A stretch of 4,170 nucleotides of DNA. Origin: a virus. Its lineage: Duplodnaviria > Heunggongvirae > Uroviricota > Caudoviricetes. Every line of letters starts with the position of its first letter. The first letter of the stretch is position 1. The notes under the pieces were generated by a model. That model saw only the letters and a list, made by a program, of their open reading frames with translations, searched no databases and was not told the DNA's origin. Location of the stretch: IMG/VR virus record IMGVR_UViG_2713896777_000015; one strand, given 5' to 3'. Positions 45-4,170 of this stretch are shown here, piece after piece. A program made the translations under genes and the position numbers.

Positions 45-434
45 TCATAGCCTGCTTCTCCTGCTTCTCCTTGCCTTCCGGCACTCGCGACAGATTATGT
101 TTAGACGACTGTCGTAGCGACGTATTTCTCCGTCAGGTAATGACCAGATAAGGTCCGGATCAACCACAGCAGGTTTCTTCACCTTTGCCCTCGAGAGTTT
201 TTTGCGGGCGTTTTGCCAGTCCTTACGCGCCTGTTCAGACGGGAATAACCCGTAACCAGAGCTGTATACATCGCCACTGGCAACCAGCTCTCTGGCCAGA
301 ACGCTCATCAGATATCTTGTTGCCCCAGTTTTAGCTTCCAGTTGTCGTAACGTCTCGCGCCCACTCTGGCGTACGAGTTCCACCACCTGCCCTTTAATTT
401 TTTCCCGCTCTTCTTGTGTAAAAACTTTTGCCAC
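45..434 (-). CDS. Hypothetical phage protein (129 aa), possible winged-helix DNA-binding protein, last gene of the replication operon
   Basis: Complete ORF from the six-frame track. Start is GTG at 434, preceded by AGGAGG (revcomp of 439-444) with a 4-nt spacer. It lies 40 nt downstream of the replication initiator on the same strand. The segment LRQLEAKTGATRYLMSVLARELVASG resembles a helix-turn-helix, and the C-terminus is basic (RKARRSRRSRL). It occupies the position of lambda P / phi80 gene 14 but is too small for a lambda-P-type helicase loader. Function not established. Confidence 0.6.
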   Translation of the reverse strand: MAKVFTQEEREKIKGQVVELVRQSGRETLRQLEAKTGATRYLMSVLARELVASGDVYSSGYGLFPSEQARKDWQNARKKLSRAKVKKPAVVDPDLIWSLPDGEIRRYDSRLNIICRECRKARRSRRSRL

Positions 435-474: not shown

Positions 475-1440
475 TTATCCCCTGAAACCAGGCGGAATTT
501 CTGTATCCGGTTCAGAAATATGATTCACACAACGCTGTACAGGTGAACGTCCCAGGCGGATGACCAGTTCGTCCCATTTTTCGCGGAGTTTTGACGGGCT
601 CATGATGTTTTTTACCCAGAATTGATCTCGCTGTACCCGACCAAACATTTCGCAAATTTGTCTGTGGCTTCTGCCATCCAGCATCCGCATTGTGCGCACG
701 TCATTGGCCCAGGCTGTCCAGTTAGGCTCTTTTGGTCGCATGATCTCTCCATCGTCGCTGGCAGCCTGTTCGTAAAGGTTCACGATCCGCCCCCAAATCC
801 ACTGCGCACACGCCAAATCCTCCCTGCTACCCCACTGGCGTTTTTTCGCACTAAACACAACCGCGTCGGGGTTCCGGGTTAAAAAATCCTGTTCAGCGGT
901 CTGCTGGTCCGGTTGCGAAGCTTCCGGACGAAAAGTGTTTTTATTCTCTGTAGTAATCTCTGTTGTATTCTCTGTAAGATCATCAGGCCATTTTGACCCG
1001 ATGACATTGGGTCGTTTTGAACCAATGGAGCGTTTCATTTTGACCTCTTCCATCGTGTCATTTTGACCTGATGGAGCGGCGCATTTTAAACCGATGGATT
1101 CGCTCAATTTGCCACCATCTAAAAGCTCGCTCCCGTAGTTGATCGTGTAGAAATTGGTCATATCGCGCTTTGATTTATTGAGCTTTTCACAACGCAAAAG
1201 CCCCAGCGTTTTCAGACTTGCAAACGCGCGCTTTAACGTTGACTCTGACCAGAATGGGAACTGTTCCAGCCATTGTTCCGTTGTGTTGTAAATCCAGCGA
1301 ACACCATCACATTCCATGCCGGAATTGGTATCTCTCAACCAGTAATGCAACTGCTGCAACACAATGGCTTCATTTAAGCCAATCTTCATCGCAAGCTGTG
1401 TGTTTATAACCAGTGGGCGTTCAGCAAAAAGAAGGCTCAT
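475..1440 (-). CDS. Phage replication initiation protein (lambda O-like role) with N-terminal HTH domain and DnaT-like C-terminal domain
   Basis: The C-terminal residues VNHISEPDTEIPPGFRG closely match the C-terminus of E. coli primosomal protein DnaT (recalled as ...SEPDSQIPPGFRG). The N-terminal MSLLFAERPLVINTQLAMKIGLNEAIVLQQLHYWL is the typical HTH N-terminus of phage replisome organiser proteins. The gene body contains iterons. The track ORF starts at 1494; I prefer the ATG at 1440 (Met19) because it shortens the overlap with the upstream gene from 74 to 20 nt and has a weak GGA-containing RBS. The start is ambiguous (1494, 1440 or 1389). Confidence 0.8.
   Translation of the reverse strand: MSLLFAERPLVINTQLAMKIGLNEAIVLQQLHYWLRDTNSGMECDGVRWIYNTTEQWLEQFPFWSESTLKRAFASLKTLGLLRCEKLNKSKRDMTNFYTINYGSELLDGGKLSESIGLKCAAPSGQNDTMEEVKMKRSIGSKRPNVIGSKWPDDLTENTTEITTENKNTFRPEASQPDQQTAEQDFLTRNPDAVVFSAKKRQWGSREDLACAQWIWGRIVNLYEQAASDDGEIMRPKEPNWTAWANDVRTMRMLDGRSHRQICEMFGRVQRDQFWVKNIMSPSKLREKWDELVIRLGRSPVQRCVNHISEPDTEIPPGFRG
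943..978. repeat. AT-rich tandem 12-bp repeats (ATTCTCTGTAGT / AATCTCTGTTGT / ATTCTCTGTAAG) next to the iterons; possible DNA-unwinding element of the ori
   Basis: Seen in sequence: three consecutive 12-bp units with 1-3 mismatches in a locally AT-rich stretch immediately adjacent to the iteron block. They encode the repeated TENTTEITTEN peptide in the initiator linker. Confidence 0.45.
989..1100. repeat. Putative origin of replication: five ~23-bp iterons (core CATTTTGACC-GATGGAG) inside the initiator gene
   Basis: Seen in sequence: iteron cores begin at 989 (cattttgacccgatga), 1013 (cgttttgaaccaatggag), 1036 (cattttgacct), 1059 (cattttgacctgatggagcg) and 1082 (cattttaaaccgatgga). Spacing is 24, 23, 23, 23 bp. 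In lambdoid phages the ori iterons lie within the O gene between its N- and C-terminal domains, and that is where these sit. The repeats encode the IGSK peptide repeats in the protein linker. Confidence 0.6.
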
Positions 1441-1942
1441 AATTCCATCCAGCTTTTTGTTGGTATTGCTGTCGATACGCAAGTTTGAAAGCAATTGCTT
1501 TTTCTATAAGTTCGTCAGTTTCACGATCCACTACGGCAGGATCAGCAAAAAGCAGTCCGGACTCCACCACATCGCCATATTCTTTGTTTAACCCGGCGAT
1601 CATGTACGTGATGCTTTTTCCGTCACTAATTTCACGATACAACCTGAAATCATTAATCCGAATAGCCTCCATAATTGCAGGCACTAGCGCCGTGAACTTT
1701 TCACGCTTATCCCTGGTGTCGATAGCCTTCCAGCGTTCGAATATCTTCACTCGATTAACGCCAAGTGCTCGCTGATCAACCGCGCCACCTTCATCTGTGA
1801 CACGCTGAACATCGATGTTCGGGCGCTCTTTCAAAGCCCAGAATGCTTCAGTGATTAATATCGTCGCCTGCTCCTGTGTCATTCCTGGTCGACATATCCA
1901 GGCATCCAGAGCCTCACGAGCCTGTTCAGGAGTGATTTTCAT
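1421..1942 (-). CDS. YdaT-like protein (173 aa) in the cII-equivalent position between the cro-like gene and the replication initiator
   Basis: Complete ORF with ATG at 1942, overlapping the stop of the upstream cro-like gene by 17 nt, which is consistent with translational coupling. It sits where Rac carries ydaT after ydaS. Motifs such as RVKIFERWKA and ALVPAIMEAI fit my recollection of the YdaT family, but this is not verified by a search. Confidence 0.7.
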   Translation of the reverse strand: MKITPEQAREALDAWICRPGMTQEQATILITEAFWALKERPNIDVQRVTDEGGAVDQRALGVNRVKIFERWKAIDTRDKREKFTALVPAIMEAIRINDFRLYREISDGKSITYMIAGLNKEYGDVVESGLLFADPAVVDRETDELIEKAIAFKLAYRQQYQQKAGWNYEPSFC

Positions 1943-2153
1943 TGTTCAACCGCCCCGCCCGCTTCGTCTTACGATATTCGTCATAAACCTTGGGATCATA
2001 CAGAAGCTCGCCGCCAGATGCCTCCTGTAGACGCATCGCGCGACCTTCAGGAACCAGCTCTTGCCATTGAGAAACAGCAGATGGGTCAACGCCAGCAGCT
2101 TTCGCTACTTTGGCTTTCGTACCGTAAAAATTAATTACGTCTGATTTAAACAT
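1926..2153 (-). CDS. dicC: Cro/DicC-like (YdaS-family) small transcriptional regulator, 75 aa
   Basis: Divergent from the repressor gene. The sequence ...LVPEGRAMRLQEASGGELLYDPKVYDEYRKTKRAGRLNNENHS matches my memory of the DicC/YdaS family. I prefer the ATG at 2153 (Met10 of the track ORF) because GGAGGT (revcomp of 2157-2162) lies 4 nt upstream. The track start at 2180 has no RBS and would sit inside the predicted promoter/operator. Confidence 0.8.
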   Translation of the reverse strand: MFKSDVINFYGTKAKVAKAAGVDPSAVSQWQELVPEGRAMRLQEASGGELLYDPKVYDEYRKTKRAGRLNNENHS

Positions 2154-2230
2154 CGCACCTCCAATATTGAGTTTTCTCAATGCTAATCACTCAAGGAATC
2201 TCAAGTCAAGGGTTATTAAGATATCTAAAT
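2154..2230. promoter_or_regulatory. Divergent promoter/operator region of the immunity switch between the cro-like and repressor genes
   Basis: Seen in sequence: a 16-bp palindrome ATTGAG-TTTT-CTCAAT at 2166-2181; direct repeats CTCAAG at 2190-2195 and 2200-2205; a GATATC-centred near-palindrome TTAAGATATCTAAA at 2216-2229 just upstream of the repressor ATG. A candidate - strand promoter for the cro-like gene has -35 TTGACT (revcomp of 2204-2209), an 18-bp spacer and -10 TAGCAT (revcomp of 2180-2185), so the palindrome overlaps the -10 and start site. I could not find a good + strand promoter for the repressor; the best -10-like element is TATTAA at 2214-2219, which would give a near-leaderless transcript as is common for PRM-type promoters. 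Confidence 0.55.
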
Positions 2231-2638
2231 ATGAACGAGAAAACTTTAGGTCAACGCATTAGAGAAAGACGTAAGCAGGTAGGCTTAAGTCAAAACGGTT
2301 TAAGCAAAGCTGCTGGCGTATCTGGCTCATCAATTTCATTATGGGAAAGTGACCATACAGCCCCGCGCGGGCAAAATTTGCATCGCCTCGCCGAGGTATT
2401 GCAATGTTCACCAACTTGGATACTGTTTGGCGACGAGGACAAAACACCAGCTCCCCCTGTTTCACTCGATAGTGCCTTAGACTTATCGGAAGATGAGTTA
2501 GAGATGCTGCGTTTGTATCGCGCACTTCCTAAATCAGAGCAACAAGCACAACTCAGCGAACTCCGCGCCCGCGTTGAGAATTTTAATCGCCTGTTCACCG
2601 AGCTATTAGAGGCTCGCAAACGCAACAAGCATCAATAA
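2231..2638 (+). CDS. dicA: XRE-family HTH repressor, DicA-like (CI-type prophage repressor), 135 aa
   Basis: N-terminal HTH (QRIRERRKQVGLSQNGLSKAAGVSGSSISLWESDHTAPRGQNLHRLAEVL) followed by LQCSPTWILFGDEDK, which I recall as essentially identical in E. coli DicA. The C-terminal region (...LSELRARVENFNRLFTELLEARKRNKHQ) is also DicA-like. Start placed at ATG 2231 (Met18 of the track ORF), matching the DicA N-terminus. The upstream extension to 2180 would overlap the operator and the cro-like start. Confidence 0.85.
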   Translation: MNEKTLGQRIRERRKQVGLSQNGLSKAAGVSGSSISLWESDHTAPRGQNLHRLAEVLQCSPTWILFGDEDKTPAPPVSLDSALDLSEDELEMLRLYRALPKSEQQAQLSELRARVENFNRLFTELLEARKRNKHQ

Positions 2639-2658
2639 TCATCCCTTCACAAAATTTT

Positions 2659-2693
2659 AAAGCCTTACATTTCAATGTATTGGCTTTATCTTG
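2659..2693 (+). terminator. Putative intrinsic terminator after the repressor gene
   Basis: Seen in sequence: AAAGCC (2659-2664) pairs with GGCTTT (2682-2687), with an internal palindrome ACATTTCAATGT, followed by the T-rich ATCTTG. Imperfect hairpin with a large loop, so the call is weak. By position it is analogous to lambda tImm. Confidence 0.3.
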
Positions 2694-2699
2694 CGCCAA

Positions 2700-2760
2700 C
2701 ACTTGAGTTTTCTCATCAAAAAACCTTGACGAAAAATAATGAGAAAACTAAATTACCTCC
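2700..2760 (+). promoter_or_regulatory. Second operator copy plus sigma70-like promoter for the repressor-distal operon (pL / PdicB analogue)
   Basis: Seen in sequence: TTGAGTTTTCTCA at 2703-2715 is an exact 13-bp copy of the operator core at 2167-2179. Immediately downstream are -35 TTGACG (2726-2731), a 17-bp spacer and -10 TAAATT (2749-2754). In Qin, DicA represses the dicB operon promoter located downstream of dicA (established knowledge); this arrangement is consistent with that. Confidence 0.5.
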
Positions 2761-2830
2761 ATCAAGACACCGCACGGTGTTCTCAGCAAACAGTTCCGCT
2801 ACCCCGGCGTTAAGGGGAAATGAGGTCAGC

Positions 2831-2983
2831 ATGGATACTATCGATCTTGGCAACAACGAATCTCTGGTATGTGGCGTGTTTCCCAATCAGGACGGCACGT
2901 TTACCGCGATGACGTATACCAGAAGCAAAACGTTTAAAACTGAAGCTGGCGCGCGTCGCTGGTTAGCCAGAAACACTGACTGA
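2831..2983 (+). CDS. ydfA: YdfA-like small protein (DUF1391 family), 50 aa
   Basis: MDTIDLGNNESLVCGVFPNQDGTFTAMTYTRSKTFKTEAGARRWLARNTD matches my recollection of Qin YdfA, the first gene after dicA. Start at ATG 2831 with GAGGT (2822-2826) 4 nt upstream. The track ORF's 5' extension to 2675 lacks an RBS and runs through the predicted terminator and promoter. Confidence 0.7.
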   Translation: MDTIDLGNNESLVCGVFPNQDGTFTAMTYTRSKTFKTEAGARRWLARNTD

Positions 2984-2994
2984 TGAGGTTGACG

Positions 2995-3633
2995 ATGGAA
3001 TTTAAAGATTTACCTCCTTCAATCCAGGAGATTGCAGCACACACACTTCGTCATCGTCTGAACGAACTTGAATTGGAATCGGTAACGAAAAAAGACACTG
3101 ATAATATGGCTCGTAATGTGCGCGATGCGTTTACCGGATTGTATTTCTGTGCGTCTATAAATAAACACGACTCAGAGAGTGTGGCAAATAAAATTGCAGA
3201 AACGACAGCGCAAAACATCAATACGAAACCAACGGAAGAAGAAATTGATCAGTTTGCTCATGATGCTGGTTTAAAAAACAAGAAAGAAAAATCGCCATAT
3301 GCGGGGAACATGTTTGTTTATGACAATCTCATCAGAATTCGTGGCGAAATTCCGGCGGAATACCTGGCAAGAGTCCATCAGGCATTGCTTAAAAATTTGG
3401 AAACAGAATTATTTGATGGCAACACTAACGGTTTCTTCATGGTATCAGGCCTTGAGAAAGACTGGGATGCAGAAAAACGCTGGAATGTTGCTACATGGTT
3501 ATTCAGTAACAGAGCCGCTGCACTGGAAGCTTCGGCATGTATTTGCGGCCTGTTCTTAACAGACCACAAATATAATCTGGATGTGTACAGTTATATTTAC
3601 GCTGAACACGGTCCACTCTGGATTGACTGGTAA
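2995..3633 (+). CDS. Hypothetical protein, 212 aa, no recognisable motif; AT-rich cargo gene in the repressor-distal early operon
   Basis: Long ORF (track 2983..3633). I prefer ATG 2995 because GAGG (2985-2988) lies 6 nt upstream; the alternative ATG at 2983 overlaps the ydfA-like stop (TGATG). GC content is visibly lower than the flanking backbone. I see no Walker A, HTH, HNH or other motif I can name. It sits where Qin carries ydfB-ydfC-dicF-dicB and where lambdoid phages carry accessory genes. Confidence 0.75.
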   Translation: MEFKDLPPSIQEIAAHTLRHRLNELELESVTKKDTDNMARNVRDAFTGLYFCASINKHDSESVANKIAETTAQNINTKPTEEEIDQFAHDAGLKNKKEKSPYAGNMFVYDNLIRIRGEIPAEYLARVHQALLKNLETELFDGNTNGFFMVSGLEKDWDAEKRWNVATWLFSNRAAALEASACICGLFLTDHKYNLDVYSYIYAEHGPLWIDW

Positions 3634-3843
3634 TTATAAGGAAACACCAGCAGGGCCGCGGCGACCAACAGAACGATTAAAATCAATAATGCCATTATAA
3701 AGGACATTATTTAATTTATCGTCGAATGCTGATTCTGTGAGCCTCAACTCTGAATGAGTTTTTAATAACCCTGATTGCCTGAGTTGATTTACCAGGCATT
3801 CAATCTGTTTTTCAATAAGCGGATTTCTTTTTTTGTTTGGCAT
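3634..3843 (-). CDS. Hypothetical small protein (69 aa), convergent with the 212-aa gene
   Basis: Preferred start ATG at 3843 (Met5 of the track ORF) with GGAGG (revcomp of 3849-3853) and a 5-nt spacer, a near-ideal RBS. The track start at 3855 has none. Its stop codon (revcomp of 3634-3636) directly abuts the + strand gene's TAA (3631-3633), giving TAATTA. Basic N-terminus (MPNKKRNPLIEKQ...). AT-rich. No clear promoter found in 3844-3900. Confidence 0.5.
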   Translation of the reverse strand: MPNKKRNPLIEKQIECLVNQLRQSGLLKTHSELRLTESAFDDKLNNVLYNGIIDFNRSVGRRGPAGVSL

Positions 3844-3903
3844 TTTATCCTCCATTGAGGTTCTGGGTTAAAAATGGAGACCAACACGCTGTCACGTGTG
3901 GTC

Positions 3904-4170
3904 GTGCGCCGGACACGGATAAGAATCCGGTACTGACAGTTTACTGAAAGGATATTTCCCTGAAAAGTCAGGGCATAACGCGAAAGCGTACGGCGAAGCT
4001 CTTTCCCTTAGAAGGCTTGTCGTTAGATTTCTTCGAACGTGCGCTTCCGGTTGTGGCACTCCGCGAAATGGCGCGGCGGTAAGTATGGCGGGGTTATTCC
4101 TTCCCCATTGAGGACACCGGGTTGTCAGGTTGACCATACGCTTAAGTGACAACCCCGCTGCAACGCCCTC
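3904..4170 (+). ncRNA. GC-rich highly structured segment, probably the 5' part of a structured RNA or RNA-based mobile element (truncated by the window edge)
   Basis: Seen in sequence, + strand: GTGCG at 3904-3908 (second copy 4039-4043); hairpins CGGAT-AAGA-ATCCG (3916-3929), CCCTGA-AAAG-TCAGGG (3958-3973), ACGC-GAAA-GCGT with a GNRA loop (3978-3989), CCGCG-AAATGG-CGCGG (4061-4076), GGGG-N9-CCCC (4090-4106) and a 9-bp stem GGGTTGTCA/TGACAACCC with a 19-nt loop (4119-4155). Loops are purine-rich on the + strand and pyrimidine-rich on the - strand, which favours a + strand RNA. All three + frames hit stops between 4109 and 4149 and the only - strand ORF uses a TTG start with no RBS, so the segment is non-coding. 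Identity unresolved. Confidence 0.35.

Follow-up and report, generated by a model that had tools for sequence, protein, structure and literature searches.

Why should a short word from the control switch of a phage recur on the far side of the repressor gene? The question is raised by a stretch of caudoviral DNA from IMG/VR record IMGVR_UViG_2713896777_000015, here referred to as the window (the whole 4,170 nucleotides that were analysed). An earlier note on this stretch had pointed to a 13-bp word shared exactly by the operator of a divergent switch and by a site in front of a second promoter, and had proposed that one DicA-like repressor acts on both a pR-like and a pL-like promoter. The comparisons below support this proposal, through homology and synteny with the Qin prophage and through covariation of the word with the repressor HTH. 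The 13-mer is very probably the operator core of a DicA-type repressor, occurring once at the switch and twice at the early-left (PL) promoter, sites at which the repressor would be expected to bind and repress.

A Qin-like immunity region

By its gene content and order, the window is the immunity region of a Qin-like lambdoid prophage (Table 1). It shares with Qin the order cro-like gene, repressor, ydfA...dicF, dicB, an order also found in phage mEp460, where it continues onward to exo, xis and int. With K-12 DicA the repressor shares 57% identity (E 3e-52; both 135 aa), and the Cro-like protein is 71% identical to K-12 DicC. Their genes are divergent and lie 77 bp apart, with the RBS GGAGG just upstream of the Cro-like gene. 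The loci differ in the ydfA-dicF interval, which in the window holds the 212-aa gene and the convergent 69/73-aa gene and in Qin holds ydfB and ydfC. They differ also on the right arm, where the window has YdaT/CII-like, O-like and DUF977 genes and Qin has the remnants ydfX and ydfW. Inside the O-like gene, at positions 981-1110, there are four to five iterons (CATCnGGnCATTTTGACCnGATG) with a 23-24-bp periodicity, presumably the phage origin.

An S24 peptidase or Ala-Gly autocleavage domain is absent from the repressor, and its Pfam matches are to HTH families only; DicA has likewise been described as having no S24-type cleavage domain (PMC10448788). In this respect the window repressor, without a RecA cleavage motif or domain, resembles Qin DicA/Rem and Gifsy-type systems, and it differs from lambda CI and P22 C2 in being short (135 aa) and in having no LexA-like S24 cleavage domain. 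Given that the cleavage domain is missing, induction would be expected to proceed via a Rem-type antirepressor or a flip of the switch, and not via RecA cleavage. The window itself contains no antirepressor gene; a rem homologue is annotated in mEp460, which is closely related, and the link to Rem is drawn by analogy only.

Table 1. Features of the window. Positions are those of the 4,170-nt stretch, with the strand in brackets where it applies.
Feature	Position	Sequence or size	Basis and remarks
DUF977 gene	45-434 (-)		
O-like replication gene	475-1494 (-)		Contains iterons
YdaT/CII-like gene	1421-1942 (-)		
Cro/DicC-like gene	1926-2153 (-)	75 aa	ATG at 2153; Pfam P22_Cro, E 3.2e-16
Switch operator A	2166-2181	ATTGAGTTTTCTCAAT	16-bp inverted repeat, 6-bp arms around TTTT, 0 mismatches
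pR-like promoter of the Cro-like gene (predicted)	2180-2209 (-)	TTGACT / 18 bp / TAGCAT	Consensus scan
Candidate second switch operator	2191-2204	TCAAGGAATCTCAA	8/10 arm positions; 24 bp from A
Candidate third switch operator	2216-2229	TTAAGATATCTAAA	25 bp further on; abuts the repressor ATG
DicA-like repressor gene	2231-2638 (+)	135 aa	Pfam HTH_3, E 2.1e-15
Distal PL operator B	2703-2715	TTGAGTTTTCTCA	Centre 16.5 bp upstream of the -35
PL-like promoter, dicBp homologue (predicted)	2726-2754 (+)	TTGACG (2726-2731) / 17 bp / TAAATT (2749-2754)	Consensus scan and positional homology to Qin
Proximal PL operator C	2740-2752	TGAGAAAACTAAA	Inverted; over the spacer and the -10
PL transcript leader	2761-2830 (+)		Putative start; conserved across heteroimmune relatives
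ydfA-like gene	2831-2983 (+)	50 aa	Pfam DUF1391, E 1.4e-29
212-aa gene	2995-3633 (+)	212 aa	PHROG 2151, function unassigned
69/73-aa gene	3634-3855 (-)	69/73 aa	PHROG 4274, function unassigned; convergent to the PL operon
dicF precursor region, 5' part	3903-4170 (+)	268 bp	90% identical to K-12 L003 3603-3872

Copies of the operator word

The duplication reported in the earlier note is real, with TTGAGTTTTCTCA found exactly and on the + strand at both 2167-2179 and 2703-2715. The downstream promoter was thought to carry this single site; it in fact carries two operator copies, the duplicate and an inverted copy at 2740-2752 (+ strand coordinates) that had been missed, which reads TGAGAAAACTAAA, is 12/13 identical and overlaps the -10 TAAATT. 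An exact 13-nt repeat is by itself weak evidence (some repeated word of at least 13 nt was present in 23% of 300 first-order Markov random sequences of the window's length and composition), and its significance comes from context. Matches to the 13-mer at two or fewer mismatches number three in the window against 0.23 expected, a count reached in none of 200 shuffles, and all three copies are located on core promoter elements.

The window also holds a longer repeat than the 13-mer. Its longest exact repeat is a 14-nt perfect inverted one (2089-2102 / 2306-2319) that encodes K-A-A-G-V, on opposite strands, in the HTH of the Cro-like protein and of the repressor.

The word was also found to be restricted in its occurrence. 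In the complete 45.9-kb mEp460 genome, allowing one mismatch, it is present at the three homologous sites only, and over 83 related loci (419,936 bases) it was recovered at the switch and the two PL sites and nowhere else. The word is present in 83/83 loci at the switch, in 83/83 at the distal PL site and in 80/83 at the proximal PL site. Across the 83 loci and the mEp460 genome, the many copies that would mark a dispersed genomic repeat element are thus not seen. A search of the searchable literature for the operator words found none, the only match being an unrelated Drosophila paper.

The switch region

The first copy of the 13-mer forms the core of operator A, which is invariant in 82 of the 83 loci and abuts the -10 TAGCAT of the minus-strand promoter. 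Operator A would sit at about +1 of the pR-like promoter, for which a start near 2173 on the minus strand is predicted. It is the positional equivalent of the Qin operator Oc (TTGTTAGTCATAACTAACAA, L003 2366-2385), A lying 13 bp from the ATG of the Cro-like gene and Oc 15 bp from the dicC ATG. DicA binds Oc, a 20-nt inverted repeat beside dicC, in vivo, a single base change abolishes the binding, and from Oc DicA represses dicC and activates dicA (PMC3441716).

Two further words, at 2191-2204 and 2216-2229, have two arm mismatches each and follow operator A with a phasing of 24/25 bp. The candidate at 2191-2204 is weak by itself, its phasing matching that of Qin Om, and the two words correspond to Qin Om and Oa. 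The switch thus appears tripartite with ~24-bp phasing, and the repressor gene lies between both operator sets, as in lambda and P22. The predicted Qin switch operators Om and Oa were not bound by DicA in vivo (PMC3441716), so that similarity to the operator word does not guarantee occupancy. Moreover, the third word, TTAAGATATCTAAA, is also kept in Citrobacter braakii, where the Cro-like helix matches that of the window and the repressor HTH differs. As it is common to both despite the differing repressor HTH, this word may be Cro-specific or may be promoter sequence.

The repressor ATG (2231) has no Shine-Dalgarno sequence, and a -10-like TAAGAT (2217-2222) is found 8 nt upstream of it. The repressor mRNA may accordingly be leaderless, like that of lambda cI transcribed from PRM. 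The Qin dicA gene is also without a Shine-Dalgarno sequence.

The PL-like promoter and its probable operators

The promoter that had been named downstream of the repressor gene, with its TTGACG and TAAATT elements, is present in the window. The promoter scan by itself was not enriched in this AT-rich region, where such sites occur at chance frequency (2 sites vs 1.7 expected). What identifies the promoter is its position together with its homology to Qin dicBp. The latter is a lambda-PL-like promoter that is derepressed 22-fold by deletion of dicA and 165-fold by the antirepressor Rem, and each of two Qin intergenic regions, dicA-dicC and dicA-dicBp, is described as carrying operator sequences (PMC10448788). 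A large-scale promoter study records the location of DicA binding at dicB as unknown (PMC7567609). The published dicBp 'position 813/814' was set aside as an anchor for the transcription start site, as its numbering origin is not stated.

Operators B and C bracket the -35 and cover the -10, and the Qin promoter (TTGACC / 17 bp / TAATCT) has the same layout. Its distal word TGTTAGCTATAGCATACA has the offset of B, with its centre 16.5 bp ahead of the -35 TTGACC, and its proximal word TGTTAGTCATGGCTAATC overlaps the -10 TAATCT, as C does in the window. The two loci become homologous again from just past the -10 to the ydfA ATG. The operator word itself differs, being TTGAG-TTTT-CTCAA in the window (6-bp arms, 4-bp centre) and TGTTAG-N6-CTAACA in Qin. 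Their repressor recognition helices differ as well (VSGSSISLWES in the window, ISHVSVSQWER in Qin), on which ground the two should be heteroimmune. In having one repressor, two divergent early promoters and repeated imperfect palindromes that overlap -35 and -10 elements, the arrangement predicted for the window is also like that of lambda and P22. It differs from these phages in that the window PL has two recognisable sites 36 bp apart, not three at 20-24 bp, and in that no N gene follows it.

The second site had been described as keeping only one perfect half of the palindrome. It is indeed imperfect, but B keeps 13/16 positions and not just a half, and C keeps 14/16. The single deviation of C from the palindrome, CTCA to CTAA, creates the -10 (TAAATT; TAACCT in Buttiauxella). 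This deviation is kept across lineages, Buttiauxella included, and no compensating change is seen in B. Both operators form a clear conservation footprint, with 0.23 (B) and 0.15 (C) variants per column among 43 distinct PL regions of the window class against 2.0-3.25 in the flanks and inter-site spacers. In relatives the distance between B and C ranges over 34-36 bp, and for this reason cooperative binding is not implied.

Point mutations inside B or C occur in loci L008, L078, L079, L081 and L083 (e.g., ATTGAGCTTTCTCAT, TTGAGTTTTATCA and ATGATAAAACTAAAT); judging by these changes, the prophages concerned may be decaying or derepressed cryptic prophages.

A hairpin of the form AAAGCC-TACATT..AATGTA-GGCTTT is encoded at 2658-2688 (+), 20 nt past the repressor stop codon. 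It is nearly invariant, a variant being seen just once, in a single column, over 43 distinct sequences; it is partly kept in Buttiauxella and has no U-tract. A terminator scan of positions 2100-2900 called no intrinsic terminators, this hairpin included. Its role could be that of a weak terminator or of a site for a protein.

The early-left operon and its leader

The promoter had been credited with driving the ydfA-like and 212-aa genes. Both are included in its operon, but the operon extends further, to the dicF precursor and beyond. The homology to the dicF precursor at 3903-4170 is non-coding, and its K-12 counterpart lies immediately upstream of dicF. The dicF precursor is processed by RNase III/RNase E. 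In the closest complete-genome relative (L001), dicF starts ~12 nt past the end of the window (Rfam RF00039 at L001 6708-6759, the window end being L001 6696) and is followed by dicB, a DUF1482 gene and an exonuclease gene. In mEp460, xis and int belong to this transcription unit as well. Searched against Rfam with an E cut-off of 1, the full window gave no match. Since the promoter heads what in relatives is a ydfA...dicF-dicB-exo-xis-int unit, it is identified as the early-left (PL-equivalent) promoter, and its genes are expected to be silent in the lysogen.

Neither Pfam nor PADLOC gave a match for the 212-aa and 69/73-aa proteins, whose PHROGs have no assigned function and whose homologues are all labelled 'hypothetical' or 'Ybl81'. 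Neither protein matched PDB sequences below E 0.28, and a Foldseek search of the PDB with a low-confidence AlphaFold model of the 212-aa protein (pLDDT 62.7) gave nothing at E <=0.001. The N-terminal ~50 aa of the 212-aa protein (MEFKDLP...) are common to a 121-aa protein at the same position in mEp460, and four other PHROGs match it over the N-terminal 50-75 aa only. This pattern suggests a conserved N-terminal module with variable C-termini. The stop codons of the 212-aa and 69/73-aa genes abut without a spacer (TAA 3631-3633 / TTA 3634-3636).

Heteroimmune relatives, including those of other genera, keep the sequence of the predicted 70-nt PL leader, and they do so even if another gene comes first in the operon (L003 2932-3008, L086, L088, L091 and L093 1488-1566). 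Its motif reads CATCAA..CAC-loop-GTG..CTCAG..A-rich..GTTCCGCT.CCC.GCG(T/A)TA..GGG. RNAalifold, applied to six diverse leaders, supported just 8 pairs with one compensatory change only, and on this basis a structured RNA was rejected as a demonstrated feature of the leader. A second copy of the leader core motif, such as a putR-like partner, was not found in mEp460, and a search of phages with the leader DNA did not match HK022. The leader could be a nut/put-like element or a processing element, in a phage group that has no annotated N gene.

Covariation of operator words and repressor helices

The relatives compared carry repressors 46-100% identical to that of the window; a Tritos phage was left out of the covariation analysis, as it has a repressor of another family and gene starts that seem to be wrongly annotated. 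Switch word and PL word were found to change together, with diverging flanks, in five specificity classes, covering the window class in E. coli and Buttiauxella, C. braakii, the Qin class and phiES15. Two Buttiauxella species, with repressors 76% and 74% identical to that of the window, the recognition helix VSDSSISLWES and heavily diverged flanks, keep the three-site layout. Their switch carries ATTGAGTTTTCTCAAT or CTGAGTTTTCTCAAT, and this word is found again ahead of the -35, with TTGAGAAAACTAA covering the -10. In C. braakii (ISHATISLWES), TTGTTGAGTTT... is present at both the switch and PL. The Qin class (ISHVSVSQWER) has TGTTAG words, and the Cronobacter phage phiES15 has ACTAAC-N4-GTTAGT, its switch holding three phased sites and its PL two.

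This relationship was also evident in the length of the longest word shared by switch and PL. Within the VS[GD]SSISLWES class (E. coli and two Buttiauxella) it measures 12-17 nt. For C. braakii it is 12 nt against itself vs 7-10 nt across classes, and for the Qin class it is 9-11 nt within the class vs 6-8 nt across classes. The switch-versus-PL matrix of shared words is therefore block-diagonal over three repressor classes, to which phiES15 adds a further class. As the repressor gene and the Cro-like gene are inherited together, this covariation cannot tell which of the two proteins reads each site.

Alternative explanations

An unlikely alternative is that the PL words are read mainly by the Cro/DicC-like protein, or that the repressor occupies C only, B being a remnant that could be dispensed with. 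Partial occupancy has a precedent in Qin, where DicA bound only Oc among the three predicted switch operators (PMC3441716), and a reading by Cro would fit the observation that the window and C. braakii have nearly the same Cro-like recognition helix (DPSAVSQW in the window, DRSAVSQW in C. braakii) and share TTGAGTTT and TTAAGATATCTAAA, although their repressor HTHs differ. However, deletion of dicA, and not of dicC, derepresses Qin dicBp (PMC10448788). A remnant status of B is at odds with its conservation, which is as strong as that of C by the variant counts given above, and with the distal site being the best palindrome of the locus in Buttiauxella and phiES15.

It is considerably less probable still that the inverted pair B/C (2703-2716 / 2739-2752) acts not as DNA bound by a protein but as an RNA hairpin, which would terminate, attenuate or direct the processing of transcripts that read through from the repressor gene. 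The fold of 2639-2765 does pair 2706-2749 with a total of -22.5 kcal/mol and a z of -4.55, matched by 0/200 shuffles, but such pairing follows by itself whenever a palindromic operator is present in two inverted copies. The loop of the B/C stem measures 22 nt and contains the -35, the stem has no U-tract, no terminator was called there, and its G/T mismatch is never compensated in any lineage. In addition, the third copy of the word stands at the switch, 536 bp off and without a partner, and the hairpin would be missing from a transcript begun at the PL-like promoter. A chance repeat or a generic dispersed genomic repeat without regulatory meaning, for which the frequency of such repeats in random sequences could be cited, is hardly credible for a word that has a third copy, lies on core promoter elements in every copy, is absent from the rest of 420 kb of loci and of the whole mEp460 genome, is kept across genera while its flanks diverge and co-varies with repressor class.

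A model for the immunity region

The reading preferred here remains that of an operator core for the DicA-type repressor at both promoters. By analogy with lambda, the word is probably read by the Cro/DicC-like protein as well. In the lysogen, a dimeric repressor on operator A, near +1 of the cro-like promoter, would block rightward (lytic) transcription and may also activate its own weak promoter, as at Qin Oc. Repressor on B and C would keep RNA polymerase off the PL-equivalent promoter. This homologue of dicBp is predicted to drive ydfA, the 212-aa gene, dicF and dicB and, in intact relatives, exo-xis-int. Both lytic arms would thus be silenced by one protein, and derepression would follow from a Rem-type antirepressor or from a flip of the switch.

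Two extensions of this model are improbable in our estimation. In the first, the repressor would bridge the switch operator and the PL pair, which are separated by 536-572 bp with the repressor gene enclosed, in an OL-OR loop. If true, such a loop would sharpen repression and autoregulation, and long-range looping would be convergent in a second repressor architecture that is short, antirepressor-controlled and without a CI-like C-terminal domain. In the second, a separate proposal, the leader would be a put/nut-like antitermination RNA; if true, antitermination would be factor-independent in a phage group that has no N gene.

Implications for Qin-like prophages

The architecture described here is already known from the Qin and lambdoid OR/OL arrangement and is no new principle. 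What is new is the operator word TTGAG-TTTT-CTCAA and a three-site map for an uncharacterised immunity type. The value of this is modest, and the immunity type occurs in 797 of 5426 complete E. coli genomes. The cross-class comparison also predicts DicA sites at K-12 dicBp, in the form of two TGTTAG-N6-CTAA words at the -35-upstream and -10 positions. More broadly, the correspondence between operator word and repressor class would allow the heteroimmunity groups of Qin-like prophages to be predicted from sequence by a simple rule.
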